64,000 nucleotides of DNA from Malacoraja senta (lineage: Eukaryota), in contig CM075990.1 in NCBI GenBank assembly GCA_038087875.1, positions 4,900,001 to 4,964,000 of the forward strand, in the 5' to 3' direction. Positions 1,575 through 64,000 of the stretch are shown here, one piece after another. A program made the translations under genes and the position numbers. The notes under the pieces are model-generated. The model was not told the origin of the DNA. It saw only the letters and a program-made list of their open reading frames with translations, and did not search any database. How positions within the stretch are numbered: the stretch's first letter is position 1; every line of letters begins with the position of its first letter.

Positions 1575-2665
1575 AGGTAGGGAGGGATTGGACCAATAGG
1601 GTATGTTGAACAATCCCTGTTCCAGGCGTACACTGGCCCTCTCCCCGAACTCTACCTCCGCTACATTGATGACTGCATCGGTGCTGCCTCCTGCACCCAT
1701 GCAGAACTCACTGACTTCATCAACTTCACCACTAATTTCCATCCTGCACTCAAATTCACTTGGACCATCTTCGACATCTCCCTACCGTTTCTGAATCTCA
1801 CCGTCTCCATCACAGGAGGCAGACTATTGACCGACATCTACTACAAACCTACTGACTCCCATAGCTATCTAGACTACACTACTTCCCACCCTGTTTCCTG
1901 TAAAGTCCTCTATTCCCAATTCCTCCATCTACACCGCATCTGCGCCCAGGATGAGGTTTTCCATACTAGATCATCGGAGATGTCCTCATTCTTTAGGAAA
2001 TGGGGGTTCCCCCCTCTCATTATAGATGAGGCTCTCACTAGGGTCTCCTCGATAACCCGCAGCTCTGCTCTTGCTCCCCCTCCCCCCATTCGCAACAAGG
2101 ACAGAGTCCTTGCCGTCGCATACAGCATATAATCCTCCAACACTTTGGCCACCTCCAACGGGATCCCACTACTAGCCACATCTTCCCATCTCCACCCCTT
2201 TCTACTTTCCACAGAGACCGTTCCCTTCGCAACTCCCTGGTCAACTCATCCCTTCCCACCCAAACCACCCCCTCCCCAGGTACAGTCCCCTGCAACCGCA
2301 GGAGATGCAACACCTGTCCCTTTACCTCCCCCCTTGACTCCATCCAAGGACCCCAGTAGTCTTTTCAGGTGAGGCAGAGGTTCACTTGCACCTCCTCTAA
2401 CCTCATCTACTGTATCCGCTGTTCCAGGTGTCAACTCCTATACATCGGCGAGACCAAGCGCAGGCTCGGCGATTATTTCGTTGAATACCTTCGCTCAGCC
2501 CACCTTAACCTACCTGATCTCCCGGTTGCTCAACAGTTTAACTCCCCCTCCCATTCCCACACTGACCTTTCTGTCCTGGGCCTCCTCCTATGTCAGAGTG
2601 AGGCCCAGCGCAAATTGCAGGAATAGCACCTCATATTTCGCTTGGGTAGCTTACACCCCAGTCTC
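1575..2665 (+). mobile_element. Penelope-like retroelement fragment (RT C-terminus + GIY-YIG endonuclease)
   Basis: LRYIDD RT motif, TDIYYKPTDSHSYLDY, and CTSSNLIYCIRCSRCQLLYIGETKRRL (GIY-YIG); frameshifted. Confidence 0.92.
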
Positions 2666-3166: not shown

Positions 3167-3477
3167 CACAGTGGTGCTGCAGTAGAATTACTGCCTTTGG
3201 AGTTACAGCGCCAGAAACCCTAGTTCGATCCTGACTACGGGTGCCGTCTGTACGAAGTTTGTACGTTCTCCCTGCGACCGTGTGGGTTTTCTCTGGGTGC
3301 TCTGGTTTCCTCCCACACTCCAAAGACGTACAAGTTTGCAGATTAATTGGCATCGGCAAAAACTGTAAATTGTTCCTAGTGTGTAGGGTAGTGCTGGTGT
3401 ACAGGGATCGCTGGTCGGTACGGACTCGGTGGGCCGAAGGGCCTGTTTCTGTGCTGTATCTCTAAACTAAACTAAAC
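3167..3477 (+). mobile_element. tRNA-derived V-SINE (HE1-like), representative copy
   Basis: A/B-box-like head, V-domain GGGTGCTCCGGTTTCCTCCCACA-like core, and a CR1-like tail with (CTAAA)n. Other copies at about 4090-4375+, 6348-6550+, 6900-7165-, 8733-8912+, 10926-11220-, 11514-11812+, 12122-12415+, 18367-18665+, 31980-32297-, 55869-56180+ and 56818-57030+. Confidence 0.88.
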
Positions 3478-3547
3478 GGTGTCAATTTTGCCCCTGCTGC
3501 GTCATCTTGTGGACTAGGTGTTTCGACTGGACTCTTTTCTCTTGCAG

Positions 3548-3715
3548 GGTGGTGATTGCCGTCTGCAGTGGGAACGTAGATGTGCCGTTGATTAGGGAGT
3601 GCCTGGACCGAGCCCTGGTGCTGGACAACAGGATGTGCAAGTTCTCCATCCAGATGTGTGACAGCACCGGGGACCTGGCGAAACTGCTGGAGGTACTCAC
3701 CCGCGAGGAAGTGAG
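3548..3715 (+). CDS. Internal exon of a threonine dehydratase/ammonia-lyase (TdcB-like, ACT-domain) gene
   Basis: Acceptor ttttctcttgcag|G. Encodes VVIAVCSGNVDVPLIRECLDRALVLDNRMCKFSIQMCDSTGDLAKLLEVLTREEV(R), which resembles the end of the PLP fold-type II domain (SGGN-like motif) and the start of an ACT domain. Donor AG|gcgagt keeps phase with the next exon. Confidence 0.82.
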
Positions 3716-4982
3716 GCGAGTCGACAGAGAGCGCCGGACAATTTCATAACTGCACTCATCCCAGGATTGTATTGAAATCATAGAACATTGTTACAGCTCT
3801 GGTTATTTGGCCCATCACACCCACGCTGGCTCCCGGATCAACAATCTACTCAGTCCCATTCCCCTGCTTTCTCTGCCACCCCAAAATTATTTCTCCTTCA
3901 TTTCTCATAACATTTCCTTTGTAAAGATCTGAATGACACAGTTTTCACTGTCTGGAGGAAAGTCCCAGATCATCACCATTACATGTAAAGAAAGACGTTT
4001 TTCTAAGCATCCCTCATTCGACATGTCAACATAGGTGTGTGAGAGGGTGTTGGTATAGGTGCTAATGTGCGCTCGTGTTGGGTGTCACAATATCACAGCG
4101 GTAGAGTTGCTGCCTCACAGCGCCTGAGACCGGGTTCGATCCTAACCATTGGCGCGGTCTGTAAGGAGTTTGTACGTTCTCCTTGTGATCACGTGTGTTT
4201 CCTACGGGTGCTCCGGTTTCCTCCCACATTCCAAAGGCGTGCAGGTTTGTAGGTTAATTGGCTTCTGTAAATTCTTCCTAGTGTAAAGGATAGAACTAGT
4301 GTACAGGTGATCGCTGGTCAGCATGGACTCAGTGGGCCGATGGGCCAGTACCCAGGCTGTATCTCTAAACTAAACATATATTGGTTTGAGAATGTAATTT
4401 GTCATCTGTAAAATGATGCCTATTTTCCCATTGCCACGTCTGGGGCTATTTTAGGGAGGAATTCTAGTTCCCTGGTGTAGTGTTACGACTGGATCAATCT
4501 TCTCTTAGGGTGACCATGAATGGTGAAAGGTCAATTTGTTAATTTGTTGAGCCACCAGGGATCATTTCATGAATTGATACATTTCAGACATTGGTGCATT
4601 GACAGAGGGAAGAATACATTCTATGGATTTGATTAGTGAATCCTGACATACTTGGGCAAGTTATGAACCTGTCTATGGTGCTTGGACCAAATGTGTCCTT
4701 ATCCAAGGTAGACCATGATCTGATTCATGCCAGCAATCGCTACAAACACCACAGCAACTGAACCATCCTATCACCAACTAGAGAGAGGTCCTGATCTACC
4801 TCATTGGAGATCCTCGGACTTTAATTGGACTTTTCTGGACTCTATCTTGCAGTGAAGGTTATTTATTCCCTTATGTGTACATTGTGGACAGCTTGGTTGT
4901 AATCATGTATAGTCTTTCCGGTGACTGGATAGCAATCAACAAAAAGGCTTTTTACTGTACTTTTGTACATGTAACTTCGGTA

Positions 4983-5487
4983 CAGGTTCACCAGACTGAT
5001 TCCTGGGATGGCAGGACTTTCATATGAAGAAAGACTGGATAGACTCGGCTTGTACTCGCTAGAATTTAGAAGATTGAGGGGGGATTTTATAGAAACCTAC
5101 AAAATTCTTAAGGGGTTGGAGAGGCTAGATGCAGGAAGATTGTTCCCGATGTTGGGGAAGTCCAGAACAAGGGGTCACAGTTTAAGGATAAGGGGGAAGT
5201 CTTTTGGGACCGAGATGAGAGAAAAAGATTTCACACAGAGAGTGGTGAATCTGTGGAATTCTCTGCCACAGAAAGTAGTTGAGAGGCCAGTTCATTGGCT
5301 ATATTTAAGAGAGAGTTAGATGTGGCCCTTGTGGCTAAAGGGATCAGGGGGTATGGAGAGCAGGCAGGTACAGGATACTGAGTTGGATGATCAGCCATGA
5401 TCATATTGAATGGCGGTGAAGGCTCGAAGGGCCGAATGGCCTACTCCTGCACCCATTTTCTATGTTTCTATGTTTCTATGTTTCTAT
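4983..5487 (+). mobile_element. CR1 3' fragment
   Basis: ORF2 C-terminal peptide and (TTTCTATG)n tail. Confidence 0.92.
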
Positions 5488-5804
5488 GGGACAATAAACA
5501 AAACAAAACTAGAATAATTTACTAAACAAAATGGCAGTTTATTTTAGTCCTTCAATCAGTTGTCCTATGTTCAGAACACTAAGTGATCCCTTGTCTTAAC
5601 ATGAACCACCCCAATCAAATTCATCTTCCTGCATACTCCCTATAACACTTTTATCAAGGTGTGAGTATATTGCGACTCGTTGTACTTGCCTCTGCATGTA
5701 CTATTCACCAAGAGGAACCAAATGAGAAGAGGTGAGCAGAGACACTGGCCAACAGTACACATGTGAAATATTATATATATAATATGCAATAGATGCTTAG
5801 TGCT

Positions 5805-6012
5805 AGACACAATATGCTGGAGTAACTCATAACTGGGTGGTGGGTGGTGCAGTGGCGATACTGCCCACTCCCCTGACATCAGTCTGAAGAAGGGTCTCAA
5901 CCCGAAACGTCACCCACTCCTTCTTTCCAGAGACGCTGCCTGTCCCGCTGAGTTACTCCAGCATTTTGTGCCTATCTTCGATTTAAGCAGCATCTGCAGT
6001 TCTTTCCTACAC
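5805..6012. mobile_element. Short Penelope-derived element (GCTGGAGTAACTCAGCGGG subfamily) with a 12-bp TSD
   Basis: ATGCTTAGTGCT on both flanks; contains CTGAAGAAGGGTCTCAACCCGAAACGTC. Many related copies occur in the window (e.g. about 380-515, 16658-16742, 17570-17690, 38930-39315, 43572-44005, 45890-46660). Confidence 0.72.
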
Positions 6013-6121
6013 ATGCTTAGTGCTGATCTCTGAAGAGGAATTTTCTCTCGCCTGTCCTGAATCTTTTACCTGCCAGTTATTCTTTCCGCTTGCATCTCTA
6101 ACTCTTTCTTTCTGGCCTTAG

Positions 6122-6179
6122 GGTGTTGGATGTATTTCAGGAGCGGTCTTTTGTTACCTCGGGTATTTTCAGCATTAAG
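6122..6179 (+). CDS. Penultimate exon of the threonine dehydratase-like gene
   Basis: Polypyrimidine tract plus ttag|G, donor AAG|gtaaga. Encodes (R)VLDVFQERSFVTSGIFSIK, matching the middle of the ACT domain (I.D+.H/QER motif). Confidence 0.82.
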
Positions 6180-7889
6180 GTAAGAAAAGATGGAAAATCA
6201 CATTCGTTCGGTATGTTGAAGTCAAAGGCTTTTCATTAATGGTTATCAGCTGGCAAATGCAATGTCTTTTGGCACTTAGATTTAAATTCATCGCAGATGG
6301 AAAAGAATGAATGGTATCCCACACTGGAAACTAGGAATCATACAAATTGGCGCAGCGGTAGAGTTGCTGCCTTACAGCACCAGAGACCCGGGTTCGATCC
6401 TTACTACAGGCGCTGTCTTTGCGGAGTTTGCACATTCTCCCTGTGACCAGGTGGGTTTTCTCCGGGTGCTCCAGTTTCCTCCCACACTCCAAAGACGTGC
6501 AGGTTTGTAGGTTAATTGGCTTCGTAAAATGATAAATTGTACTAAACCAAACCAATCATCCATTCACCCTATGGATCCAACAAATTCAAAACTGGTGACG
6601 TTTTATTCAGGTAAAAACTCAGCCAGGTACTTGCAGCGTGAACTGGAACCAACTCTTTTGCGTGATTCAGGGACAGCAGTGGTCACCAGAAGTGATGGAT
6701 CCATTTATTTGACACAGCACATTCCCAACCAATGCTGCTACTGAGTATTAGATGATGATATCAAGGGATGAGTTGCAAGGTGAATTAGAACCACTGATCA
6801 GCCCTGATCTAACTGAATGGCAGAGCAAGCTTGAAGGGCTGAATGGCCTATTTCCACCTTAAACAAGGACAATTTGGAATCAGTCAACATTCAATTATTT
6901 ATTTTAGTTTAGAGATGTAGCGTTGGAACAGGCCCTTCAGCCCACGCCAACCAATAATAACCCCTACACTCATTCTATCCTGCACAGAATCCAATTAACC
7001 TACAAACCTGTACGTCTTTGGAATGTGGGAGGAAACCGGAGCACCCGGTGAAACACTCACACAGTCACAGGGAGAACGTACAAACTCCCTACAGACAGCA
7101 TCCGTGGTCAGGATCGAACCCGGGTCTCTGGTGCTGTTAGGCAATACCACTGCACCACTGTGCCGACATGTCAGCCATTGACTGTGGATGTTATTTCTAT
7201 AAAAGTCATCAATGAGCGCGTTCAATCAGCTGATTCTTTGGAGCATTGCAAGTTGGGAGGAAGGAATAGTTGACATTTCGGGTCGAGACCTTGCATCAAG
7301 ACACTATTAACAATTTGCCCCCCCCCCCCACGCCACCCCACCCACAGACGCTGAATCCCTGAATCCCTCTGAATCCCGACAGCAGCTTTTCGTGCAGCAA
7401 TATTCAACAGAAATTTGCACAAAATCAAGGCGTTAGGCCTTTTCAGCATTAAAGCATGGAAAGCTGGCACTGTTCCACACTCTATTCTATATCAGCCATC
7501 CAGAACAAGCTATTCCACTCATCACCTGCACTCCCACAGTCTCCATATGGGCTGTCCCTTGAACACATCCTCAGCACCTGCCCCGTCCCACACACAATTA
7601 CACCCCAAATGGGACCTCTAACCCAGGGTGAGTCATGTCCCTGTCTTGGTGGTTCTGCTACATCTGAAGTGGCCTGAGGTTTAAGCCAAGGCAAACATTC
7701 CCATCTCTCCCGCGAGGTTACGTCACACATCAAGAGCAGCCCTTTCTGCGCAGCCAAATAAAATAATCAAAAAAGCCAGCAGTCAAAAACTAATTCATCA
7801 TTAAACTGAAAAATCCGAACAAAGGCAAAACGTGCCTATTTGGATTCAGCCGACACTGGAAAAGAATAAAATACCACTCAGAATTATGT

Positions 7890-8008
7890 TTAAGAAGGAA
7901 CTGCAGATGCTGGAATATCTAAGGTAGACAAAAATGCTGGAGGAACTCAGCGGGTGAGTTTCTCAGCTGTGAGTTTCACCCGCTGAGTTTCTCCAGCATT
8001 TTTGTCTA
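7890..8008. mobile_element. Short Penelope-derived fold-back element with a 14-bp target duplication
   Basis: Same 5' end (TTAAGAAGGAACTGCAGATGCTGGA) with shorter arms; ACTCAGAATTATGT at 7876-7889 and 8009-8022. Confidence 0.78.
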
Positions 8009-8916
8009 ACTCAGAATTATGTAGCACTTTGGTTGTTTAAGGTCTCTCCAGAATAAGGGCAACATATTTCCCCCCCTATGCAGTGGGAACATTGAAGTGA
8101 CTGGAAGGCACTTGAAGAGCAATTATATCTATGCATCAGTAAATCTGCTTTCTAACTTCAGTCATCAGGGGTACAGGAGATTTAAGCACAGAGTTTGAAT
8201 GCGACCAGCACTCCCCTCATCTCCTTCAAGCCCCCTTCTCCCTGATACATGCTGGTGGCAAGAGGCAGAGCGGGAACAAATAACAGCAAGAAGCCATTAA
8301 AGCACTGTTCATTCATTCACACTGTACCCTCTGTTGTCAAGCTGGAACGGGTAGAGTGTGGATTTACGAGGATGTTGCCAGGATAGAGGGTCTGAGCTAT
8401 AGGGAGAGGTTGAGTAGGTTGGGATTCTATTCCTTGGAGCGCAAGAGGATGAGGGGTGATCTTATAGAGGTGTATAAAAGCATGAGAGGAATAGATCGGG
8501 TAGAAGCACAGTCTCTTGTCCAGAGTAGGGGAATCGAGGACCAGAGGACATAGGGATTTTAACACAAAATCTACCAGCAGAATAGATCAGTGGTGCAGCT
8601 GGTAGAGCCACTGCCTCCTTGCACCAGTGACCCAGGTTCAATCCTGACCTGGGCTGCTGCCTGTTAGCCTGTTCTCCCTCCGACTGCGTGGGCTTCCTAT
8701 GGAAGCTCCAGGTTTATTCCTCCAGGGCTGCCTGGTGGCGCAGCGGTAGAGTTGCTGCCTTACAGCACCAGAGACCCGGGTTCGATCCTGACTATGGGTG
8801 CTGTCTGTACGGAGTTTGTACTACTCCCTGTGGCCACGTGGGTTTTCTCCGGGTGCTCCGGTTTCCTCCCACACTCTAAAGACATACAGGTTTGTAGGTT
8901 AATTGGCTTCTGTGAA

Positions 8917-9836
8917 GTGCAAAGCTGGGTGGCAGTGTGAACTGTGAAGAGGATGCTATGAGGATGCAGGGTGACTTGGACAGGTTGGGTGAGTGGGCAG
9001 ATGCATGGCAATATAATGTAGATATATTATTCACAGTATTATGTGGATATATGTGAGGTTATCCACTTTGGTGGCAAGAATGGGAAGGCAGATTATTATC
9101 TGAATGGTGTCAGGTTAGGATAAGGGGAAGTACAACGAGACCAGGGTGTCCTTGTACATCAGTCACTGAAAGTAAACATGCAGGTACAGCAGGCAATGAA
9201 GAAAACTAATGGCATGTTGGCCTTCATAACGAAAGGAGTTGAGTATAGGAGCAAAGAGGTCCTTCTGCAGTTGCACAGGGTGAGGCCACACTTGGAGTAT
9301 TGTGTGCAGTTTTGGTCTCCTAATTTGAGGAAGGACATTCTTGCTTTTGAGAGAGTGCAGCGTAGGTTCACGAGATTAATTCCCGGGAAGGCAGGACTGT
9401 CATGTGATGAAAGAATGGAGCGACTGGGCTTGTATTCACTGGAATTTAGAACGATGAGAGGGGATTTTATAGAAACATATAAAATTATTAAGGGATTGGA
9501 CACGCTAGATGCAGGAAACATTTTCCCGATGTTGAGGGAGTCCAGAACTAGGGGCCACAGTTTAAGAATAAGGGGGAGGCCATTTCTGAGATGAGGAAAA
9601 ACATGTTCACACTGGAGAGTTGTAAATTTGTGCCACTGAAGGCAGTGGAGGCTGATTCATTGGATGCATTGAAAAGAAAGTTAGATAGAGCTCTTTGGGC
9701 TAGCGGAATCAAGGGATATGCGGAGATGGCAGGAACGGGATACTGATTGTGGATGATCAGCCATGATCACATTGAATGGCAGTGCTGGCTCGAAGGGCCG
9801 AATGGCCTACTCCTGCACCTATTGTCTATGTTTGTA
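8917..9836 (+). mobile_element. CR1 3' fragment
   Basis: CR1 ORF2 C-terminal peptide (RPHLEYCVQFWSP) and a 3' UTR ending GGCCGAATGGCCTACTCCTGCACC. Confidence 0.92.
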
Positions 9837-10519
9837 TGAAAGTGTCATTGCATGCTGACACCCACGGGAGTGGAATTAGTACGTGTCGATGTCTTTGGAG
9901 GGAGGATGGCTTCCGTGTTAGTTCTTCGGCTTAAGAATTACCAAGGCTTAGAATTACCAACACACAGCACATGATGTAAGTAGAGGCTCTACTTGGCAGG
10001 GTAGGCTGTTGTTCATAAGCAGAGCGAATGGCTTATCTCCATCTTCTGCCCTATTGGCCACACGTCACTTCCAGCCTGAGGAGTTCACTGTGCCACTGAC
10101 AGGGCCAATCATAAAGTAACACATGAACAAGCTGGAGTGTTGCGGCTTGTATTTCCCATCAGTCTGACAAGTATTTGGCTGCCTCTCGATCACCCCTTGA
10201 AACACATCATTGGTGTGTCCTCACATCATGATTAGTTACAGATAGTTATTTCCATCTGGTAATAGAATGATCAACAACTTCATTGCCAGTTTTATGCATG
10301 CACTTACCCGCTATTTCATCATAAAAACTAAAATTACCTCTCTTCATCCCCACTATTTTCAGTTTTCTCGACGTTCTTTTGAGATGATATCATCTCACTA
10401 ATTTGTTACTCAGAACCGCAGCATTTTCAACTTACATCATTATTACTCAAGAGTTTGAGAACTTGTACAAAGTCCTTTGGTGATGTAACTTGTCAGTTCG
10501 TGCAACTCCCTCTGTGTAA

Positions 10520-10728
10520 AGGGCCTGTCCCACTTGGGGGTCATTTGCGCGTCACGCAGGTGGCACGCGAAGATTTTGTGAATCCCAAAATCCTGGGCAG
10601 CCGCGCGCGACCGCTCGTCACTGCCTACGTCACCACGCACCTTGCGCGTGTAATGCACGCCATGCGAGCGTCGTGCATCGTGACGTGTAAATGATGTCGT
10701 GTAAATGACGCGCAAATGACGCCCAAGT
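10520..10728. mobile_element. Truncated Harbinger-type MITE
   Basis: Left TIR AGGGCCTGTCCCACTTGGG; the right end stops at CCCAAGT. CpG-rich palindromic interior. Confidence 0.7.
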
Positions 10729-11513
10729 TCAGTAACAATCCACTCATGTAACGTCCACTATTAGTGGGATATGTCTAACATGTGCAACATGTGAAGCCTA
10801 CAGTCTACAGGTAAGACTGTATCGGCTCTCCAGTGTAACTTCCCGTGGCGGACTGTGCAGCGACACTTCACATGAATAACTCCCTGATTTTAGTAGTCTG
10901 TAACAGATTCCATGTGCACCATATTTATTTTAGTTTAGAGCTACAGCATGGACACAGGCCCTTCGGCCCATCGAGCCTGCTCCAATTTTATGGCAATCAC
11001 CCATATATGAGTTTTACCTTACACACTAAGGACAATTTACAGAAGCCAATTAGCTTACAAACCTCCACATCTTTGGGACGTGAGAGGAAACAGGAGCACC
11101 CGGTGAAAACCCACGTGCTCACTGGGACTCAGTACAGACAGCATCATTAGTCAGGATGGAACCCAGGTCTCTGGCACTGTAAGGTAACGACTCTACTGCT
11201 GCACCACCACCATGCTGCCCTGTGCCTCCATGTACTGTAAATGGAGTGAATTCTATGACATCTCTATTACAATGTCATGGCCATTGTCATGGCTTAAACT
11301 CTAATGTGCCCTCGTTTCACAACAGCTTTCTCTGACCTAATATCTACATCCATCATACGTACAGTGTTAAGTTACGTAAGACATTTAAAGTAGAACAGTA
11401 TTGTAGCTGGGTCATTTCTGGGAAACTAGCTCTCTGCAATACTGCCTGTAACATGGGCTAAGAGTTCAGGGAGTTTTATAGTCATAGGTTCCGAAATGGA
11501 ACAATAACAGCAT

Positions 11514-11812
11514 GGGGGCGCAGCGGTAGAGTTGCTGCCTCACAGCGCCAGAGACCTGAGTTCGATCCTGACTATGGGTGCTGTCTATTCAGAGTTTGCA
11601 TGTTCTCCCTGTGACTGCATGGGTTTTCTCTGGATGCTCCAGTTTCCTCCCACATCCTAAAGACGTGCGGGTTTGTAGGTTAATTGGCTTCTGTGAATAG
11701 TTCCTAGTGTGTAGGATAGAACTAGTGTACAGGTGATCGTTGGTTGGCGCGGACCTGGTGGGCCGAAGGGACTTGTTGCCGTGCTGTCGCACTAAACTAA
11801 ATTAAACTAAAC
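11514..11812 (+). mobile_element. V-SINE full-length copy
   Basis: GGCGCAGCGGTAGAG head, GTTCGATCC B-box, V-domain and (CTAAA)n tail. Confidence 0.88.
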
Positions 11813-12967
11813 AATGGAATACTATTATTTATAGTTTTACTATTCCTCTTCATCTCAATACTTCCCTTGAATAATATCTGAGTGGGTTTCAAAACACAGC
11901 TTGTGAATTTATAGCCCAGGGCTTCCCAGTTATTGCTATGGCTGAATTTCAGATGCTGAGCCTGTGTGAGTTTGGAGATCTCCAGCGTTGTGTGGCAGTC
12001 TGATAGACATTAGGTTGCAGTAGATCTGGAGTGAGATGGGCAAATCCTAAAGGATTCCCACTCAACACAGCGTCCCCACTCCTGGAGGAGATCACGAGTT
12101 TGCATGTCAGCATGTGTGCGGCATGGTGGCGCAATGGTAGAGTTGCTGCCTTACATCACCAGAGACCTGGGTTTGATCCTGACTGTGGGAGCTTGTCTGT
12201 ACGAGTTTATACCTTCTCCCAGGGACCGCGTGGGTTTTCACCGGGAGCTCCGGTTTCCCCCCCACACTCCAAAGACGTACAGGTTTGTAGGTTAATTGGC
12301 TTGGTAAAATTGTAAATTGTCCCTAGGATAGTGTTAGTGTATGGGGATCACAGGTCGCCGCGGACTCGGTGAGCCGAAGGGCCTGTTTCTGTGCTGCATC
12401 GCTGAACTAAAATAAACATAATGAACTCACTGAGGAATATAGACACCATCTTTTGCCATTTTGCCAATTAAATAGTGAGTTATCTAATCTGTGTCTCAAT
12501 ATCAAGTACCATCAATTCCTCCAGATTCCTTCTCACTGATGTCCCTCCGCTGAAATTACAATGGGTTCTCCACATAGTGCTGCATCGTGAGTTTCATAAT
12601 CAAATGCCCAACACATTGAACATCCCTCGGTCTCTAAAATGATCGTCCCTCCTCACACTGTGTGCAGATCATCTGCCTGTCAATATCAACGTTAGCCGGG
12701 AAGAGAGAATATATTTTAATTTAGTTTAGTTTATTGTCACGTGCACTGAGCTATAGGGAAAAGCTTTTTAGTTGCGTGCTATCTAGCCAGCGGAAAGTCT
12801 ATATATGATTACAATCACACTGTCCACACGGTGCAGATTATGAAATGCTGCCGTTGGAGCATAGATATAAAGGAGTAGAACGATTGTAATGAATGATTGC
12901 AGATTCGCTTCGAGATTTTGTTCAGAGATGCAGCGTGGAAACAGGCCCTTCATCCCGCTGAGTCTAT

Positions 12968-13308
12968 AATAATAATAATAATGGATGGGATTTATATAGC
13001 GCCTTTCTAATAATCAAGGCGCTTTACATCGCATTATTCATTCACTCCTCAGTCACACTCGGTGGTGGTGAGCTACTTCTGTAGCCACAGCTGCCCTGGG
13101 GCAGACTGACGGAAGCGTGGCTGCTAATCTGCGCCTACGGCCCCTCCGACCACCACCAATCATTCACACACATTCACACACATTCACACGCAGGCAAAGG
13201 TGGGTGAAGTGTCTTGCCCAAGGACACAACGACAGTATGCACTCCAAGCGGGATTCGAACCGGCTACCTTCCGGTTGCCAGCCGAACACTTAGCCCATTG
13301 CGCCATCC
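12968..13308 (-). mobile_element. tRNA-derived CORE-type SINE with an L2-like tail
   Basis: On -: TGGCGCAATGG A-box, GGTTCGAATCC B-box, CORE-like GTGTCCTTGGGCAAGACACTT, and tail GGCGCTATATAAAT-(TAT)n. Inserted into a V-SINE tail. Confidence 0.82.
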
Positions 13309-13457
13309 ATCAACCGTTCACACTAGTTCTATGTTATCCCACTTTCACAGCCACTCCCTACACACTAGGAACAATTTACAGAAACCGTCGAACCTGCAAA
13401 CCTGCGCGTCTTTGAGAAAGCACCCAGTGTCGCAAAGAACAAAGTGAATCAATGAAT

Positions 13458-13905
13458 CAGTCAAGTCAAGTCAAGTCACTTTTATTTCTATAGCACATTT
13501 AAAAAACAACTCTCGTTGGCCAAAGTGCTTTACATTGGTGGAGGTACTAACGTTATACAACAGTGGTTCATAGATTAAATACAAACATCACTACATACAT
13601 ATAGCCCTCGCTCAGAGGACGTCAGGAAAGGCTTGAGAGTAGAGATGAGTTTTAAGTCTCGACTTAAAGGAGTCGTTGGAGGGGGCAGTTCTGATGGGAA
13701 GAGGGATGCTGTTCCACAGTCTAAGAGCTGCAACCGCAAAGGCGCGGTCGCCCCTGAGCTTATGCCTAGACCGCGGGATGTTCAGTAACCCCAAGTCGGC
13801 CAATCTGAGGGACCTAGGGGTGGTGTGGTGGGTAAGCAGACTTTTGATGTATGTGGGGGCAAGCCCGTTAAGGGCTTTGTTGACATAAAGGAGGATCTTG
13901 AAATT
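13458..13905 (-). mobile_element. L2-clade LINE 3' fragment
   Basis: Encodes GDRAFAVAALRLWNSIP...FKSRLKTHLY; (TTGAC)n tail. Confidence 0.88.
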
Positions 13906-14519
13906 TATCAGTGGTGTGAATCCAATGAATCAGTGGTAGAGGGAAGTGTGAAGTCTGATGAAGGGTCTCGAAGCGAAACATCTTTTGTGCCTTTGCTTGG
14001 AGGGAAGATAATTTAAGAGACCCAGGGGTGTACAATGTGTTGGGCATCTGATTATAAAAGAGTCACCATGCAGCACTGTGTTGACAACCCAAGCATGGAA
14101 ACTCTGGGTAAATAAAACTTGGTGCCGTCCTGAAGCAAATGCGCCCACATCATAATGGGGCTGGGTATCTTTAGGAAGTTGATGGAGATTGGAAGTGCCA
14201 CCATGTTTCTCCAACTTCCTACCGTAGCTTGGACCAGACCTCAAGCTGTATAACTTCCCATCTTAACCTCCCCACCTCTCCCTCATATTCCCAACACTGA
14301 GATATTAGAGAGGAAGGTGAGGAGAATAAGAGACTTAAATGATCTTCCCTACTCACGTTGTGAGTGCAGATCACCTGCCTGTCGAGACTTCGGTCTTTAC
14401 TCTCAGTATTAATTGTTTGGGATTTTATTCTGCATTAATGCTTGTCGTGGTGTTAAAAGATGCGAGTTGTTGTTAATAGTTAACGATGTAGACAGCTTGT
14501 ACATGGTTGTCTCCTCCAG

Positions 14520-14627
14520 GTCACTTCTGTTATCGAGGTCCGAGATCGATCGCAAATGGTGCAGGTGGAGAGGACGCTGAGGGAGCGCTACACCAATTTC
14601 ACCTGGGTGGAACGGGCTGAAGACTGA
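14520..14627 (+). CDS. Terminal coding exon of the threonine dehydratase-like gene
   Basis: Acceptor tctcctccag|G, phase 0. Encodes VTSVIEVRDRSQMVQVERTLRERYTNFTWVERAED*, with the V..ETRD-like end of the ACT domain. AATAAA at 15301 is a candidate polyA signal. Confidence 0.8.
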   Translation, partial: VTSVIEVRDRSQMVQVERTLRERYTNFTWVERAED

Positions 14628-17600
14628 GGCAGAGGTGAGAGAGTAAGGGTCAATGTAGGCAGAGAACAATGCCAGGTGCGTCTCCAGGTGTAGTTTCAAG
14701 CAGTCTGTATATGGTTTCCATTTGCCGGTATATGCCGGTCATTTCTGGCAAGTCGGTCAAAGGAAACGCCTTCATTGCCAACCATACCAAGGTCAACATC
14801 TTCTCAGTGTCAGCAGTGACACAATGGTAGCATTCCCACCTTGGAGTTAGAAACCCCTCTCCACAAATTGGAGCATGAAATTCAGGCAGGGACTCCGAGC
14901 AGCACCGGGGGAGTTCAACAATGGCAGAGGTTTCCTCATTTTGATGCCTACTCACCTCTGCAATTTCTTGGACAGAGCAGTTTCCATTCCACATTTACCA
15001 GCATTTGGTCCATATCCCTCCAAACCTGTCCTATCCATGTACCTGTCTAACTGCTTCTTAAATGTTGCGATAGTCCCTGTCTCAACTACCTCCTCTGGCA
15101 GCTTGTTCCAAACATCCACCACCCTTTGTGTAAAACAGGTTACCCCTCAGATTCCTATAAACATTTCCCCCCAACACCTTAAAAGGTGTCATCAATAATT
15201 TTGCTGCCATTACCATCATGAAGCCTGAGTATTAAAGTTCCAAGTAAAAGTTAATGAAAGTCCTTCACAATTTCAAGGAGGTCCAAGGAAAGGCACGGTC
15301 AATAAAATTATTCCAAGATATGGTCGCAACTGTTACTTGTACATCACAATGAGATAATGAACAGGTAATGTCTTTAATTGTTAGTGGAAGGATATGGGAA
15401 TGGAAAAAGGTTTTCTGCACAATAGTACCACGAGTGGGTAAACAAAATCTCAGCTCAATGATACTTCTGATATCATAGTACTCCCTTGGCTCTCTGAAGT
15501 GTCATCCTTGAGCTAGTCCCTAGAATGTGATTTGAATCCACCATCTCTGACTCGGGCAAGCATATTATTATGGTATAACCAACGCCGGAGACATTTGGAC
15601 AGTACATGGATAAAAACATAGAACAAATAATAGGAGAAGTTTGTGCTTTAGGGAGAGTTAGGGCAGGCTGGAGGATGAGCAGCGATCTAACAGAGGTATA
15701 TAAGCTCATGAGAGGAATAGATTGGGCAAATGCATTTTTTACCCAGAGTAGGTGTATCATGAACCAGGTTTAATGTGAGATGGGAACATTTTAATAGGAA
15801 CCTGAGGGCCCACTTTTTTTCACAGAGGGTGGTGGGTATATGGAATCAAGGGATATGGGGAGAATGGCGTACTGATTTTGATGATCAGCCATGATCATAT
15901 TGAATGGTGGTGCTGGCTCGAAGGGCCAAAATAGCCTACTCATGCACCTATTTTCTATGTTTCTATGTGATTGCTAAGATGATAATGGGAGGTTGTGATA
16001 AATTGCTATCAGCATGGATTCAGACTTTTACTTTCTATATGGAGGTTGAGCATTTCCAACATTTTCTATTTTTGTTTTATGTCTCAAGTTCTTCACCACC
16101 AAAACACCAGCCAGGTGGGATCACAGGAGAGTTTTATATACAGGCTGTCTGCTGCAACAGTTATAGCATCCTCAATGCACCATTATTAACAACGAGCAGA
16201 ACTAGTTGACATCGCCAGCATTTCCAATTTAATGGAAAGATAAAACTAGAAACAGACTTTTCAGCCCAAGGAACTTTAGTATATAAACCCTTGGCTAGAT
16301 CAGAAGCAAGAGGCAAACTGGCTCACCCCTTCGGGAATTTGGGCTGTCACGAAATCCTTGTTTACATTTCATACTTCATGCTGGCTTGAAAAGGGTTTAT
16401 TGTCCCTCCGATCACTGGGACTAAATCCTGGAACTCCTGACTCAATAGCACTGTGGGCAGCTTTGTGCTGTAAGGAGTGCCGTAACATTGAGACCAACCA
16501 CTCAAAGGGCCGCAGCGGATCACCCTCATCTGCCACTATTTTCTCCAGAGCAATTACCAATCGCAATAAGTGCTGATCCTGCCACTGATACCTACATCCC
16601 ATCAATAAATCAAAGTAATACATTGTGTACAAGACTACACAAGTTAATACATCAAAGATAGACACAAAAAGGTTGAGTAACTCAGCGGGACAGGCATCAT
16701 CTCTGGAGAGAAGGAATGCGTGGCGTTTCGGGTCGAGACTGAGTAATAAATTAATCTCATCATCAGGTTTATTTAAAGATGAGGATAAATACTGAGGAAT
16801 AAGGACGAGCTGAAAGGTCTCCCAGTAATTGAAGGGTTATTCACTGCCGAGACTCTGGGTGTTCAGACTGGTTAGTAAACCCAGCTGTGATGTGGCTTTT
16901 GTCTCTCTGTCAGAGACAACTGTAGCACTGGGTCAGAAACAGGGTCACTGCGGTTCTAGCTTGGATCCAGTCCTCATTAAGCCCACAGCCATATTCCCAC
17001 ACGAAATGGAAACCAGACAAATCCTCAGCACTGCAAGGGGATGATGTTGATTTCAGTTAAGTATGTTTATCTGCTATCTCCAATAGGATGAAGAAGCTAA
17101 AAAGAAAATGCAGGTTTCACTTCATGCTCTGAAACATATTTTAATGTTAGGAGAATACAGGACAATTTCACAGGTCTAATAACAGGAATCACTCTGTTTT
17201 TCTTCCTACAGATGCAGCTTGACCTGCTGTCTATTTGTATTCTATTGTTGTTACAGTACTGGATGAAGTCATATCAGTTTATCAAAATGCAACAATGAAT
17301 GCTCTAGTTTTAAATGTACAGTTGGTCCACATGGATCAGTATTGCAATTACTTAGCTTCTAAACAAATAGCTTAAAGGACACCTTTTTACCATGATACAA
17401 ATTCTTCTTCTTTCAATTTGTTAATGTCTGCTGTCTTATAAAAGTTTGGCATTGGTAGATCACTATCTAGAAAGTTCGAAGCAATTATTCATTTATTACT
17501 CATTTATTTGGCCATTTTGATGACGGTTTCCTGTTTTAAGGCCATCATGTACAAGGCATTATCAGTTCTAATGAAGAAGGGTTTCGACCTGAAACGTCAC

Positions 17601-22797: not shown

Positions 22798-22915
22798 TCA
22801 CTTTTCCTTCTGCTCTGGTTTGTACGACAACAGGTGCTGCAGGGAGGTGAACCCAAACAGAAATGTTTGAAGCGCCCACTTGGTTCGAGTGCATGAGTTT
22901 GTGATTCCTTTATCA
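22798..22915 (-). CDS. TMEM254: TMEM254 terminal coding exon
   Basis: Acceptor ctctttctctttgcccctcacag. Encodes (S)DKGITNSCTRTKWALQTFLFGFTSLQHLLSYKPEQKEK*, with the KGIT and W..QTF.FG motifs. The assembled protein is 122 aa. Confidence 0.92.
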
Positions 22916-23163
22916 CTGTGAGGGGCAAAGAGAAAGAGGGGTTAACATTAACGAGGACAGTGAGATCATTGCACCCGTATCCAGACTCAGTCTTGCCAAA
23001 AAACATTGATTCAGATTTGTGGTCATTGCAATAGTTTTTACTTTGGTAATAACAGTTGGTTGGATCTTGGTTACATGAAGTTTCAGTGTCGATAGTTGCC
23101 AACTTATCCATGGGATCCTAAAAGATCTAGCAATTCCCTTTGGCCAGAAGGACTTTCAAAGTT

Positions 23164-23334
23164 TTTAAGAAGGAACTGCAGATGCTGGAAAATCGAAGGT
23201 AGACAAAAATGCTGGAGAAACTCAGCGGGTGAGGCAGCATCTATGGAGCGAAGGAAATAGGCAACGTTTCGGCCTGAAACGTTGCCTATTTCCTTCGCTC
23301 CATAGATGCTGCCTCACCCGCTGAGTTTCTCCAG
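23164..23334. mobile_element. Short Penelope-derived fold-back element with a 15-bp target duplication
   Basis: Perfect inverted arms centred on TTTCGGCCTGAAA; AGGACTTTCAAAGTT at 23149-23163 and 23333-23347. Confidence 0.8.
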
Positions 23335-23850
23335 GACTTTCAAAGTTATTTTGATTGGAAAAATCTGATATTTCAAACTATCATTTGCACCAGGTTTTGG
23401 TAAAATATTAGATGTTGATCTTGCCTTGCTCAGTCCGAACATGCGTCTTCGAAAGGAGACTCCTTAAGTCCACTGGAACAACCTTCCATTTGCTGAGCAT
23501 GCATTCTCCTTCAATGAGCCAGGCAACTAAACCCTGACTTGTATTATTGACCCCTCGTAAAAATTGGTAATTGTGACAGGATGTAGCATGCCGCAAATAT
23601 TACTAATAAACAAACATACTGCACAGAGGCCTTACCTTTTGCTTTAAGGTGCCTCTCTTTCTAAACTGCTGCACTGCAACACCGAGGATCTGCTAGGGTG
23701 GAAAAGCTTCCACTTGCCGATGAGGGACTTGCCCTGCTTGCTCTCTAACCTGTAGGTAGCACTCTTGTTTCTGAATATCAAGGCTGGGGATATCCCATCC
23801 CACTACAAAATGTAGGCACATATACCAGTGGAACACAAACTGTTGGAGGC

Positions 23851-24206
23851 TAGATTGTTAAGGGTTCGGACACGCTAGAGGCAGGAAACATGTTCCCGAT
23901 GTTGGGGGAGTCCAGAACCAGGGGCCACAATTTCAGAATAAGGAGTAAGCCATTTAGAACGGAGACGAGGAAACACTTTTTCTCACAGAGAGTGGTGAGT
24001 CTGTGGAATTCTCTGTGGAATTCTCGGTGGGTTCTCTGGATGCTTTCAAGAGAGAGCTAGATAGGGCTCTTAAAAATAGGGGATATGGGGAGAAGGCAGG
24101 AACGGAGTACTGATTGGGGATGATCAGCCATGATCACATTGAATGGCGGTGCTGGCTCGAAGGGCCGAATGGCCTACTCCTGCACCTATTGTCTATTGTC
24201 TATTGT
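23851..24206 (+). mobile_element. CR1 3' fragment
   Basis: CR1 3' UTR with an (ATTGTCT)n tail. Confidence 0.88.
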
Positions 24207-25671: not shown

Positions 25672-25856
25672 TTTAAGAAGGAACTGGAGATGCTGGAAAA
25701 TCGAAGGTAGACAAAAGTGCTGGAGAAACTCAGCGGGTGCAGCAGCATCTATGGAGCAAAGAAAATAGGCAATGTTTCGGGCTGAAACGTTGCCTATTTC
25801 CTTCGCTCCATAGATGCTGCTGCACCCGCTGAGTTTCTCCTGCACTTTTGTCTACC
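25672..25856. mobile_element. Short Penelope-derived fold-back element with a 14-bp target duplication
   Basis: Same family; TCCCTATCTTAGCT at 25658-25671 and 25857-25870. Confidence 0.8.
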
Positions 25857-27496: not shown

Positions 27497-27529
<33 letters not shown>

Positions 27530-29365: not shown

Positions 29366-29528
29366 CCAGTGTCAGCTCAAAATATTTACCTACGTTGTTG
29401 CATAAAAGATTAAAATCTTATTTTAATTTATCAGCAGAGGATATGCTTTCTTCCCCAGTTCTGAATGTCCTGGCTGGTGTTGATCCTGTCTCTTTCACAC
29501 CCCCTGCTGGCTCTCTGCAGCATTTCAG

Positions 29529-30067: not shown

Positions 30068-30568
30068 AAAGGTCCACTGGCTGCAAATCATTCCACTGAA
30101 GGTTTCAATAAAATGAAAAGGCATGTGGATTATTCCTGAACTTATATATTTTTTCATTTCTCTGCATTACATTGTACGGTTGGGCAGGTGGGCTGAGTAA
30201 CTGGTGGGTTAATGCAGTTTAATACAGAGATGCACGGGGTGATGCATTTTGGGAAATTAAAGCTGGGCAGGACTGAAACAGTGAATGGCAGGGCTCTGGG
30301 GAGTGTTGTAGAGCAGAGGGATCTAGGAGTACAGGAACTGTTGCTTGAAAGTAGCACCACAGGTAGATAGGGTGGTCAAGGAGGCTTTCGGCACATTGGC
30401 CTTCATCTGTTAGAATACTGAGTACAGAAATTCAGAGATGAACACAAAAAGCTGGAGTAACTCTGGCTCAGACAGCACCTCTGGAGAAAAGGAATCGGTG
30501 ATGTTTTGGATCGAGACCCTTCTTAAGACTGAGAGTCAGGGGAAAGGGAAACAAGAGATATAGACGGT

Positions 30569-31020
30569 GATATATCAAGAACTTCACTGGCTTCCCATTT
30601 CCCACCGGATCACCTACAAAATCCTGGTCCTCACCTACAAAGCCCTCAACAACCTGGCCCCCCCTTATCTCACGGACCTCCTCTCCCCCTACCAACCCTC
30701 ACGGTCCCTCAGATCCACATCAGCTGGTCTCCTCTCCACTCCGAAATCAAACCTCTGCACTTTTGGAGGCAGAGCCTTCTCCAGGGCAGCTCCCAGGCTC
30801 TGGAATTCCCTCCCACAACCGGTCCGAAATTCTGAGTCCCTCACCATCTTCCAGTCCGGCCTCAAGACCCATCTCTTCACCTCTGCATACCCTTAGTCCC
30901 ACGTTCCCCTCCCCTCTGTCTTACTGCTCTATTTTGTTTTGTTTATTCCTGACTCTCAATTGTAAAGTCCTGAAAAGCGCTATATAAATAAAATCTATTA
31001 TTATTATTATTATTATTATA
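30569..31020 (+). mobile_element. L2-clade LINE 3' fragment
   Basis: Encodes LHWLPISHRITYKILVLTYKAL...APPYL...RSLRS...AFS.AAPRLWNSLP; tail AAGCGCTATATAAATAAA-(TAT)n. Confidence 0.92.
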
Positions 31021-31490
31021 TAGAGAGATATAGAACAAATGAATTAAAGAAATGCCAAAAAGTACTGTACCTAACCTAAAGGGAACACGCCATTGTTAGC
31101 TGTGGCCTCGGTGAAAATGACTCAACAAGACGACTTTCAAGCTTGTACAACTTGGGTGGGGGAGGGATGGAGAGAGAGGCTATGCAAGGGTTACTAGAAG
31201 TTAGAGAAATCAAAATTCATACCCCTGGGTTGTAAGCTACCCAAGCGAAATATGAGGTGCTGTTCTTACAATTTGTGTCTGGCCTTACTGACAATGGAGG
31301 CAGCCCAGGACAGAAAGATCAGTGTGGGAATGGGAAGGGGAATTAAAGTGTTTGGCAACCAGGAGATCAGGTAGGTCCAGGCGGACTGAGCGAAGGTGTT
31401 CAGTGAAACGGTCACCCAGTCTACGTTTGGTCTCGCTGTCGTACAAGAGTCCACACCTTGAACAATGGATACAGTAGATGAGGTTGAAAT
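31020..31490 (-). mobile_element. Penelope-like element 3' part (GIY-YIG remnant + terminal repeat), split from 30436-30568 by an L2 insertion
   Basis: Encodes NLIYCIHCSRCGLLY..ETKRRLGDRFTEHLRS; the terminal-repeat sequence continues on the other side of the L2. Confidence 0.8.
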
Positions 31491-40804: not shown

Positions 40805-41222
40805 CAGAAACATAGAAAATAGGTGCAGGAGTAGGCTATTCAGCCCTTCAAGCCAGCACCACCATTCAATATGATCATGGCTGATCATCCAAAATCAATA
40901 TCCCGTTCCTGCATTCTCCCTATATCCCTTGATTCTGTCTGAAGAAGGGTCTCCACCCGAAACGTCACCCATTCCATCTCTCCAGGGATGCTGCCTGTCC
41001 TGCTGAATTACTCCAGCATTTTGCATCTCCCTTGATTCTGTTAGCCCTAAGAGCTTTATCTAACTCTCTCTTGAAAATATCGTGAATTGGCCTCTATTGC
41101 CTTCTGTACAAGAGAATTCCACAGATTCACAACTCTCTGGGTGAAAAGGTTTTTTCCTCATCTCAGTCCTAAATGGCCCGCCCCTTATTCTTAAACTGTG
41201 ACCCCTGGCTCTGGACTACCCC
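40805..41222 (-). mobile_element. CR1 3' fragment interrupted by a short Penelope-derived element (40939-41028)
   Basis: CR1 3' UTR on -; CCCTTGATTCTGT is duplicated on both sides of the inner insert. Confidence 0.85.
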
Positions 41223-41588
41223 GAGCATCAGGAAGATCAGGGGGCCTTGGAGGGGAGGATGCTCATCAAATTGCGGAGCATCCTGGACAACACAGCTCAC
41301 CCCCTCCATGACACACTGGTAAACCTGGGGAGTACCTTCAGCAACAGTGTTTAAGTCGCAAAATGAATTCAGTCTGAATTCAAGTGTTCAGTCTGAAGAA
41401 GGGTTTTGGCCCGAAACGTTGCCTATTTCCTTCGCTCCATAGATGCTGCTGCACCCGCTGAGTTTCTCCAGCACTTTTGTCTACCTTCAGCAACAGACTG
41501 GTTCCACCAAGGTGCAGTACAAAACGCCACAGGAGATCGTTCTTCCCTGTGGATATCCCCTTTCTGTCTTGGGGTAGACTGAGACTAA

Positions 41589-43570: not shown

Positions 43571-44039
43571 ATAGGTGACGTTTCGGGTCGAGACCCTTCT
43601 TCAGACTGAGAGTCAGGGGACAGGGATATAGACGGCGATGTAGAGAGATGTAGAACAAATAAATGAAAGATATGCAAAAAAAGTAACAATGATAAAGGAA
43701 ACAGGCAATTGTTAACTGTGGGCGAGGTGAAAACAAGTACAATGAGGCTTAACAAAACGATGTTGAAGCTGGTCCAATGACTTGGGTGAGGATGGAATGG
43801 AAAGACGAAGGGTTACAGCTTACAGTTAACAACGGCATGTTTCCTTTATCATCGTTACTTTTTTGCATATATTTAATTCATTGTTCTATATCTCTCTACA
43901 TCACCGTCCTTTCTCTCTCATTTCCCTTGACTCTCGGTCCGAAGAAGGGTTTTGAGACGAAACGCCACTTATTCCTTTTCTCCACAGATGCTGCCTGTCC
44001 CGCTGTGTTCTTCAGGGCGGTCCCCTTCCGAGTGGGTGG

Positions 44040-52190: not shown

Positions 52191-53321
52191 TGGCTGGGAA
52201 GGGATTGGGAGCACCCTGAATTTGTGCAAGCCAATTTATATTTGGAACAAATGAGAGAAAACCATGTCCATTCTATATCGGGCAGACATCATTTATTATT
52301 AATCTGTGTTGTTATCACCAATCATGGATAAGGAAAGGCTCAGAGCAAAGTGAGACAAATGCAGGCAAGCGGGATCAGCTTAAATAGACATTTTGGTCAG
52401 CATGGGCAAGTTGGGCTGAAGGGCCTATTTCCGTGCTGTTTAATTCTGAATCTATGTATTTATGCTGCATGTACAAAATTGCTGAACGGTCAAGAAAGTA
52501 GGGTAATACTGTGCATGACTCTAAAGGTCTGCAGAGTGCTATGTAGGATTATCTATTACAAAAGCAAATAGAGTATTGGTACTGGGTTGTACTATGGGAA
52601 GATACAATCCAAAACAAAGGATTCTGCTGTCATTATGTAAAATATAGGTGCGGTAAATTCATCCAAAGTATTAGGCCTGAAATTAGATCACATGATTGTG
52701 AACTACTGTGTATGATCACAGCATACAATCTCTTAAACAATGTTAAGTGTACAAAATGGTAAGGAATAGTTAAGGATTTGTAATAACTATTCAATATACT
52801 TCGGTAGGCATCTTGTAGAAGAAGGGCAGTGAGTGCTGTGCATTTGTAATGTTGGGGAGTTTTCCTGTATATTTTTGTGACTGCCTTTTTCTTCTCTTGC
52901 ACTATTCGATATAAATCAATAGAATTTCAGTCCGTTTTTGATCTCCCATCTCTCCTGGTGACTTGCTACCTCACCAGGAGAGGAGAAGAGTTGACTGTAC
53001 ACAAAAATGCTGGAGAAACTCAGCGGGTGCAGCAGCATCTATGGAGCGAAGGAAATAGGCAACGTTTCGGGCCGAAACCCTTCTTCAGCCAATTCCCACC
53101 ACCCTTCTTCAGACTGCTTGTGCACATCTGAATGCTGGTTGTTCAGTAGAGTTAAGTAGTGCCTGAGAATCAGTCACTCATGCAGTGATCAAATCTGGAA
53201 CCTTGCAAGGTCTGTGGAGTTTGCCCATTTGTGAGATAAATTTGAGAATTAAAAAAAAGGCTTTCAAAAGTATCCATGTTAATGACATCAGATTAAAATG
53301 CAGCTTTTTAAATTTTTTCAG

Positions 53322-63815: not shown

Positions 63816-64000
63816 AAAGAAGGAACTGCAGATGCTGGAAAATCGAAGGTACAATAAAATGCTGGAGAAACTCAGCGGGTGCAGCAGCATCTATGGAGCG
63901 AAGGAAATGGGTAACGTTTCGGGCTGAAGAAGGGTTTCGGCCCGAAACGTTACCTATTTCCTTCGCTCCATAGATGCTGCTGCACCCGCTGAGTTTCTCC
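63816..64000. mobile_element. Short Penelope-derived fold-back element (runs off the window end)
   Basis: Same family; retains CTGAAGAAGGGTTTCGGCCCGAAACGTT at the fold. Confidence 0.78.

Follow-up and report, generated by a model that had tools for sequence, protein, structure and literature searches.

Small hammerhead variants associated with Penelope-like elements (PLEs), with a diminished stem III and cleaving as dimers, were reportedly described by Lunse, Weinberg and Breaker (as cited in PMC6765202); as far as their description goes, both the diminished stem III and the dimer model are alike in the skate motif analysed here, shark or ray examples may well be among their variants, and batoid cases may already be on record. 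In the consensus and figures of Cervera and de la Pena (2014, PMC4209133), the minimal hammerheads (min-HHRs) of metazoan PLEs combine CUGANGA and an extra base after A9 with a G10.1-C11.1 pair, GAAA, an NUH triplet, a palindromic 15.2-16.2 without loop III, a U-rich 5' flank and a location in the pseudo-LTR (pLTR), and they occur mostly as single truncated copies, with opposite-strand pairs 100-700 bp apart, all of which is the same here. The skate motif differs in its helix II of 4 bp, versus 7-8 bp in Schistosoma, and in a helix I of 2 bp whose first pair is U-A or U-G, and Fig. S3 of that paper has no row for a cartilaginous fish. The Poseidon element PAc of Anolis (Frangieh et al. 2024, PMC11167929) likewise has a pLTR hammerhead, AT-rich flanks, an optional tail of 30-40 nt and an RT start inside the RNA, roughly 100 nt downstream of the ribozyme, as we propose here; the skate element differs from PAc in its Neptune-type CX4CX2C linker and is known here from sequence alone.

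Animal non-LTR retrozymes are, as described in PMC7229834 and bioRxiv 10.64898/2026.07.22.740005, also non-coding, derived from PLE pLTRs and provided with a type-I hammerhead, and the latter source reports retrozymes and PLEs from one chondrichthyan genome. Retrozymes are head-to-tail tandems, whereas the skate copies are solo or head-to-head, with one decayed direct pair of 262 nt, and no tandem of intact motifs occurs in the window (the whole stretch of 64,000 nucleotides that was analysed). The motif is thus not a retrozyme, and neither is it a canonical type-I hammerhead (Rfam models; intronic amniote type), which has a 6-bp helix I with loop 1-loop 2 contacts: helix I here is 2 bp at most, and no Rfam hammerhead family is matched. 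Penelope of Adineta vaga (Arkhipova et al. 2013, PMC3846280) shares head-to-head pLTRs, palindromes at the junction, a tail on one arm, target duplications and an Inr-like motif in the pLTR, but has a low copy number and, in the account of that paper, no pile-up of 5' ends at the ribozyme.

Our literature search, for which subscription papers were mostly out of reach, turned up neither a report of hammerheads in PLEs of sharks or rays nor one of a pile-up of 5' ends at the motif. To the class known since 2014 the ribozyme would add batoid fishes and a Neptune-type element, as one of its weak members; the motif is probably inert in most copies and will not surprise a specialist. The abundance of its family makes copy ends countable, and the pile-up of 5' ends bears on where PLE RNA starts, on cutting in vivo and on the role of the hammerhead in insertion.

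The hammerhead-like motif and its element

On the plus strand, positions 5884-5911 read CTGAAGA, an extra A, GGGT-CTCA-ACCC, GAAA, CG, T and C. With the descriptor, and with the numbering and consensus given in PMC4209133, the putative minimal type-I hammerhead spans 5882..5913 (+): helix I pairs 5882-5883 with 5912-5913 (2 bp), CUGANGA occupies 5884-5890 and the extra A 5891, helix II pairs 5892-5895 with 5900-5903 around a loop at 5896-5899, and GAAA (5904-5907) runs into the palindromic ACGU (5907-5910), with the predicted cut after C5911. The initial annotation had reported a recurrent hammerhead-like motif at six places and proposed a search with a minimal type-I descriptor. Run on both strands in strict form (CUGANGA, an optional extra base, helix II of at least 3 bp, GAAA, a palindromic pair and UH), this search returned exactly those six sites, namely 5884+, 40939+, 41393+, 63924+, 53088- and 43604-, against a mean of 0.02 and a maximum of 1 in 200 dinucleotide shuffles. 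A looser pattern with at most one mismatch gave 13 matches, compared with 1.47 +/- 1.23 in 100 shuffled windows, none of which reached 13.

All six strict copies have the extra unpaired base between A9 and 10.1, the closing pair G10.1-C11.1 and ACGU in place of helix III. The proposed minimal hammerhead fits the metazoan consensus in PMC4209133 point by point, and the extra A after A9, which had been likened to natural hammerheads, is a trait of that consensus. As a repeat, the motif yields 46 profile matches (arms) in the window, 21 of which span the 5' half of the core in an ungapped test (two more, at 45943+ and, in part, near 53110-, fall under threshold and outside the 21). Among these core-bearing copies the extra A is kept in 20 and G10.1 in 18, H17 is C in 16, T in 5 and G in none, and departures from ACGU mostly reflect CpG decay. 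The whole core and helix II survive in 6 of the 21, and helix I as well in 4. Helix I had been given as 2-4 bp, of which the lower value holds: its contiguous length is 2 bp in four of the six strict copies and 0 bp in 53088- and 63924+, and 3-4 bp are never seen. By its letters, the motif is real and belongs to the minimal self-cleaving-RNA folds known from PLEs.

The element itself is represented by two remnants. The first (1596..2662, +) is a broken PLE open reading frame with the C-terminal part of the RT, a CX4CX2C linker (at about 2290-2320) and GIY-YIG, has a frameshift near 2120 and stops, and ends short of the UTR. It aligns at 49-62% identity to the RT and GIY-YIG proteins P0019, P0008, P0003 and P0005. 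Four of five relatives match RVT_1, GIY-YIG or both in Pfam at or near threshold (P0019 with both matches just under the curated cut-offs), and the fifth matches GIY-YIG below threshold; the ORF fragments of the window by themselves matched no Pfam family. The closest proteins come from elasmobranchs, and for both the retroelement remnant and one host exon the top match is batoid, which places the window in a skate or ray. The second remnant (31019..31485, -), 82% identical to the first over 263 nt, holds the GIY-YIG end, the stop and 3' UTR, and the remainder of this UTR lies with a decayed motif copy at 30429..30571 (-), a LINE fragment inserted at ~30572-31018 having split it. The GIY-YIG end, the stop and the 3' UTR (31485-31203, -) are followed on the same strand by the decayed motif (30533-30429, -), and the UTR aligns with the DNA upstream of the 43604-, 37392+ and 43939+ copies. 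Because of this continuity of ORF, UTR and motif, and of a UTR common to other copies, we place the motif in the 3' UTR/pseudo-LTR on the PLE coding strand, and the earlier derivation of the short elements from Penelope is confirmed inside the window.

A CX2-5CxxC motif lying in the linker that joins RT and endonuclease marks Neptune or Nematis, not Poseidon, in the classification of PMC8557442. By its linker the skate element would be of Neptune type, on a criterion common to Nematis; a Poseidon label was dropped for the same linker. We regard it as very likely that a Neptune-type PLE from a skate or ray carries this motif as its minimal type-I hammerhead, on the coding strand and in the 3' UTR/pLTR.

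The family is very abundant. Contig pieces aligned on 151 bases number 149,913, 175,400 and 145,834 in three sequencing runs, each of a different organism, and 16,900 in a fourth, totals which, like summed depth, are not copy numbers; the runs consist of contigs, which carry no RNA ends, strand or level. A search for an ORF start in the downstream block or at helix II found none, and a scan of viral contigs for the core gave 0 matches. Scanning metagenome contigs for the downstream block gave nine loci, with no core upstream and no PLE protein, which were rejected as chance matches in DNA of GC 0.50-0.72.

Among the individual copies, the short pLTR copy at 5862..6006 (+) comprises ~20 nt of UTR, the motif, the downstream block and a tail of 30-40 nt, and stands head-to-head with an inverted, further truncated partner arm of the same insertion at 5791..5829 (-). 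The intact-core copy at 40937..41027 (+; C3 at 40939) begins at the motif and has a 2-bp helix I and a 13-bp target-site duplication, and 454 nt from it on the same strand lies an intact-core copy of a second subfamily (41388..41488, +), with a GUU cut triplet, U-G pairs and a 2-bp helix I. An intact-core copy with long UTR (43571..43800, -; C3 at 43604) is head-to-head with a decayed copy at 43820-44013 (+); the copy at 53000..53088 (-) has core and helix II intact and the 5' strand of helix I absent; and the foldback pair at 63819..64000 holds the intact 63924+ core, devoid of helix I, inside a long hairpin. The pair at 23169..23340 is joined at the internal palindrome of helix II, and those at 25677-25858 and 38260-38409 are like it; because CUGANGA is absent from all three, there is no ribozyme in them.

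Several rearranged copies were also seen. The one at 16634-16739 has an internal deletion between two GTCT repeats which removed the 5' half of the core, and at 53000-53115 the 5' half of the motif is partly duplicated just upstream of the 53088- copy, with akin repeated starts at 41355-41392. Two direct units of ~262 nt at 46400-46935, which have an upstream stretch in common and a decayed motif apiece, are the sole retrozyme-like direct pair in the window. Copies corresponding to 5878-5979 in runs X17, X19, X22 and X2 have head-to-tail joints from 5969-5979 to 5878-5883 (1-17 contigs per run), which would place two motifs ~100 nt apart.

Taken together, the 46 arms include 13 head-to-head pairs, 12 arms end at the far tail end (profile position 140-141), paired arms differ in tail most clearly at 23169-23340 (by 36 nt), and two solo copies have target duplications of 13-14 bp; this layout of inverted partner, tail and target duplication is on record for PLEs in PMC8557442 and PMC3846280. 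Could the short palindromic repeats instead be MITE-like foldback DNA elements, with an accidental likeness to hammerheads? Several copies are near-perfect hairpins of 170-200 nt and three have the same centre, as such elements might, but the arms are unequal, the junctions variable, single arms frequent and the tail confined to one arm, and a Penelope ORF and UTR run on into this sequence. The common centre is a natural 6-bp palindrome at which the loop of either arm may be kept, as for independent joins, and we consider this reading largely refuted and extremely improbable.

Conservation, folding and possible cleavage

Once CpG sites and the two changes private to the 5884 copy were left out, variants present at 4% or more in at least one run occurred at 0 of 11 core positions, 0 of 4 in helix I, 1 of 7 in helix II (an A to G change that keeps a U-G pair), 2 of 2 in the loop and 16 of 61 downstream (Fisher p = 0.049 for the core and, with the stems added, 0.025); the best-kept downstream block has variants at 7 of 34 positions. 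This suggests an excess conservation of core and stems that is weak and marginal and is biased by the 80% likeness filter, which drops distant copies, and by contig ends, near which differences are uncounted. The general base G12 (as identified in PMC6155905) belongs to a CpG; 7 of 21 window copies and 9.8-13.6% of run depth have lost it, no less than for the downstream control CpG (6.8-9.3%). G12 thus decays like any CpG, and inserted copies are therefore unprotected and most of them dead.

In all 21 window copies 10.4 and 11.4 remain paired, 17 times as U-A and 4 times as U-G, and in these copies, all from close subfamilies, 82% of stem cells are paired versus 15-44% when slid. Covariation, the other proposed check, came out no better than shuffles among these close subfamilies (score 0.248 versus 0.235, with 149 of 500 shuffles as high), and two-sided stem changes amount to 3 pairs, versus 2.4 in shuffles. 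The initial annotation counted a lack of excess conservation or covariation of core positions, next to a lack of cleavage in dimers, as refuting the hammerhead; for genomic copies we consider the former an unfair test, because inserted copies decay neutrally and selection acts on the source lineage only.

In short folds helix II is stable in four of the six strict copies, and helix I has a probability of at most 0.02 in all six. With natural flanks, long folds keep helix II in one of five (0.88) and partially in another (0.38), and lose it in three; at 5884 the purine-rich core is predicted to pair with the downstream pyrimidine tract, leaving helix II at 0.02. An ACGU duplex appears in 0 of 6 homodimer minimum-energy folds, from a program that ignores the tertiary contacts of the core. 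An alternative hairpin across loop II and GAAAC was set aside as minor (probability at most 0.11). No longer or distal helix I was found by eye or by folding, save at the decayed copies 45943+ and 39250-, which are abutted by an inverted arm. At these two places (45889-46030 and 39138-39324) the arm abuts C3 and the foldback restores a long helix I round a decayed core; such joins could by chance yield a stable monomeric hammerhead-like fold. Rfam returned no hammerhead among 50 matches at E up to 5, which is to be expected for a motif devoid of helix III, and its miRNA-family matches were dismissed as generic hairpin matches to foldback repeats.

How far such a fold would cut can be gauged from its relatives. 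Min-HHRs are described in PMC4209133 as silent as monomers and weak as dimers, and the helix I of Fig. S3 there runs from 2 to 6 bp, the 2-bp cases being G-C pairs; the skate helix I, at most 2 bp (U-A or U-G plus G-C), lies at the lower limit of this range and ranks with its weakest helices. One of nine retrozyme dimers of Xenopus was reported to cut (bioRxiv 10.64898/2026.07.22.740005), and the Anolis PLE hammerhead is reported to cut only with protein and to be dispensable for insertion in vitro, with no sign of cleavage in vivo in Anolis RNA-seq (PMC11167929). The initial annotation had called activity uncertain, and this caution was right and should be stronger, because helix I is at most 2 bp, covariation is absent and most cores are mutated. 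Judging by these analogies, whether a source-like RNA would undergo measurable, probably protein-assisted, cleavage seems to us an even call, and most copies, including the intronic one at 5884, are expected to be inactive or nearly so.

Where the short copies begin

Among the 21 core-bearing copies, 16 start at most 5 nt from C3, at TCAGT, ~30 nt upstream of the cut site. Likeness to the UTR is lost 0-5 nt from C3 in 15, at 6-20 nt in none and at 21 nt or more in 6; the UTR match of the 40939 copy is spurious, its 13-bp target duplication setting the start at the motif, which makes 16 versus 5. For 6 of the 16 the UTR of their own subfamily is absent from the window, and 10 remain. By a second method 17 of the 46 arms start at -8..+2 (p 3e-10 versus a uniform spread), an interval chosen afterwards and with arms that are partly dependent, the 17 being the 18 found by the script minus the 5876 arm (own UTR excluded). 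In the runs, the best-supported joints land at 5878-5883, and 107 loose ends of X2, with mixed flanks, fall at 5881. The principal 5' loose end lies at 5879 and, in at least three of the four runs, continues into a UTR-like consensus, so longer copies are also common. The fall in depth at 5872-5883 was excluded as evidence for the pile-up because the reference copy differs from its relatives at 5877-5878, which clips alignments.

The start point of most short copies is an initiator-like TCAGTCT at 5879..5885 (+), whose boundary A (5881) we take to match the initiator (Inr) consensus. Matches to this consensus occur at 1.2% of window positions, and a TCAGTCT-type Inr together with GTCA at +29..+32 at 63 of 127,926. 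An internal Inr/DPE promoter in the pLTR is reported for the Penelope of D. virilis (PMC2377424). The pile-up suggests that the short copies come from uncleaved RNA beginning at the ribozyme; its simplest reading, to which we give an even chance, puts the start of the RNA 3 nt before C3, and this would account as well for a helix I that cannot exceed 2-3 bp. Microhomology may add to the pile-up in foldback pairs, because purines in this pyrimidine-rich RNA are concentrated mainly in the core, but it leaves solo copies unexplained. Few arms begin at the cut site: of 24 internal starts, 5 lie within -4..+2 nt of it and one is exact (p 0.04, with the interval chosen afterwards).

The main rival to an RNA start is a 3' splice site, since TCAGTCT can alternatively be read as the end of a pyrimidine tract with a CAG acceptor. 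A pLTR intron would then end at CAG, one base before the U preceding C3, and the spliced RNA would have a different, perhaps longer, helix I, as in Penelope of Drosophila virilis. The UTR-bearing copies do have a long pyrimidine tract ending in CAG, and the bases before the core, a G at -2 in 18 of the 21 copies and an A at -3 in 11, also fit the AG of an exon end. The intron end of D. virilis maps to the 5' end of helix I (PMC4209133). On the other hand, the short copies share no common upstream exon, the motif abuts the inverted arm in eight of them with 0-8 filler bases, four aligned UTRs show no conserved donor, and U-rich 5' flanks belong to the general min-HHR consensus of PMC4209133. 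We therefore hold splicing to be improbable as the cause of the pile-up.

We hypothesise that in RNAs of the source lineage two copies would most likely pair via the palindromic ACGU and so form helix III, and that the element's own RT-endonuclease protein would aid the hammerhead fold. A slow cut after GUC or GUU might follow, which, going by the family, we judge to be evenly balanced, and insertion would need no cleavage. The short genomic copies would derive from RNA starting ~3 nt before C3 at a pLTR promoter; RT would start internally 90-125 nt downstream, at two sites that would account for the optional tail, and extend to the 5' end of the RNA; and two such cDNAs would be joined head-to-head by microhomology into foldback pairs. 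For the Anolis PLE, unprocessed RNA is reported as the main template, with an internal RT start and extension of both strands (PMC11167929). Once inserted, copies would decay neutrally, nearly all being inactive or nearly so, as would be the 5884 copy with its 2-bp helix I and no near partner. This account as a whole, from the PLE hammerhead to the copies made from the start site, is in our view the best explanation and somewhat more probable than its alternatives combined.

A bolder form of the start-site reading is less likely than not: the pLTR promoter of skates and rays may fire 3 nt before the core, so that the ribozyme is the 5' end of the RNA and overlaps an Inr/DPE-type promoter, and internal RT initiation on that end would turn out solo pLTRs of 100-125 nt in bulk from uncleaved RNA. 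If true, the smaller set of arms beginning at the cut site would be a genomic record of in-vivo cleavage, and the junctions in a single skate genome would suffice to locate, by counting alone, where PLE RNA starts, where it is cut and by what rule copies are joined.

The same observations can be read with a ribozyme that is only vestigial, descended from a PLE hammerhead and no longer cutting, its letters kept as a binding site for the PLE protein or as a core promoter with the initiator at 5881 and the downstream element at +29..+32. The 2-bp helix I, the predicted sequestration of the core by the downstream tract, the lack of covariation and the rare coincidence of Inr and GTCA all agree with it, as do the internal Inr/DPE promoter of Penelope (PMC2377424) and the normal insertion in vitro of hammerhead mutants (PMC11167929). 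Across subfamilies, however, all core positions are kept, and with them the extra A and the G10.1-C11.1 pair as well as the palindrome and an H17 of an allowed type, none of which a promoter would need, and weak activity in vitro is usual for the min-HHR class as characterised in PMC4209133. A vestigial ribozyme is thus rather unlikely, if clearly less so than splicing.

Host genes and neighbouring repeats

The last three coding exons of an L-threonine ammonia-lyase-like gene lie at 3546..14624 (+; exons ~3546-3701, 6117-6182 and 14514-14624), and the 5884 copy sits in sense in the intron 3702-6116, with the end of the element ~110 nt and the cut site ~200 nt upstream of the next exon. TMEM254 covers at least 22801-35824 (-; Pfam matches at 35666-35824, 33253-33351 and 22801-22941), and the copies inside it are decayed or coreless. 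The initial annotation had placed several copies in introns of three host genes. Two of the genes could be mapped, and a third was not found among the 150 of 679 candidate ORFs scanned against Pfam or among the others, read by eye; of the intact copies, 5884 is intronic as stated, while the other five lie beyond 40,900, where the same scan mapped no gene, and hence outside the mapped ones.

An intact, sense, intronic copy might raise the idea of a host-domesticated ribozyme cutting the threonine ammonia-lyase-like pre-mRNA. Nothing points to this at 5884: the repeat is very abundant, with 46 arms in these 64 kb; the copy has private changes as others do, its helix I is 2 bp long and helix III is missing; and the nearest intact copy on the same strand lies 35 kb away, outside the mapped gene. 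Loss of G12 affects 7 of 21 window copies and 10-14% of depth, no less than the 7-9% at the control CpG. Domestication is, in our view, very improbable.

Other features of the window were noted in passing. A coding-looking frame of 37 aa at 47669-47779 (-), with no match in Pfam or the Atlas, is a possible exon of a third gene, and 39373-39570 (-) is by its look a probable first coding exon of TMEM254, with no support from Pfam; two foldback PLE pairs lie just downstream of it at 38943-39324. A DNA transposon at 60080-61698, which we take to be Tc1/mariner-like, has 221-nt inverted repeats and a transposase frame of 295 aa (60443-61330) and lies inside a LINE, and a second transposon remnant near 54685-55143 has a DDE_3 match. 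Directly after the PLE arm 43933-44013 comes a GC-rich minisatellite of 33 bp (43950-45260), with ~34 overlapping copies listed. The long AT-rich palindrome at 32288-32517, which holds a short internal repeat, presumably sits within a CR1-like 3' end, and many CR1-like LINE ends occur in the window. Finally, a tRNA-derived SINE family, which we assume to be HE1/V-SINE-like, is present at 3173-3433, 6342-6602, 8730-8910, 11510-11770 and 18366-18626.
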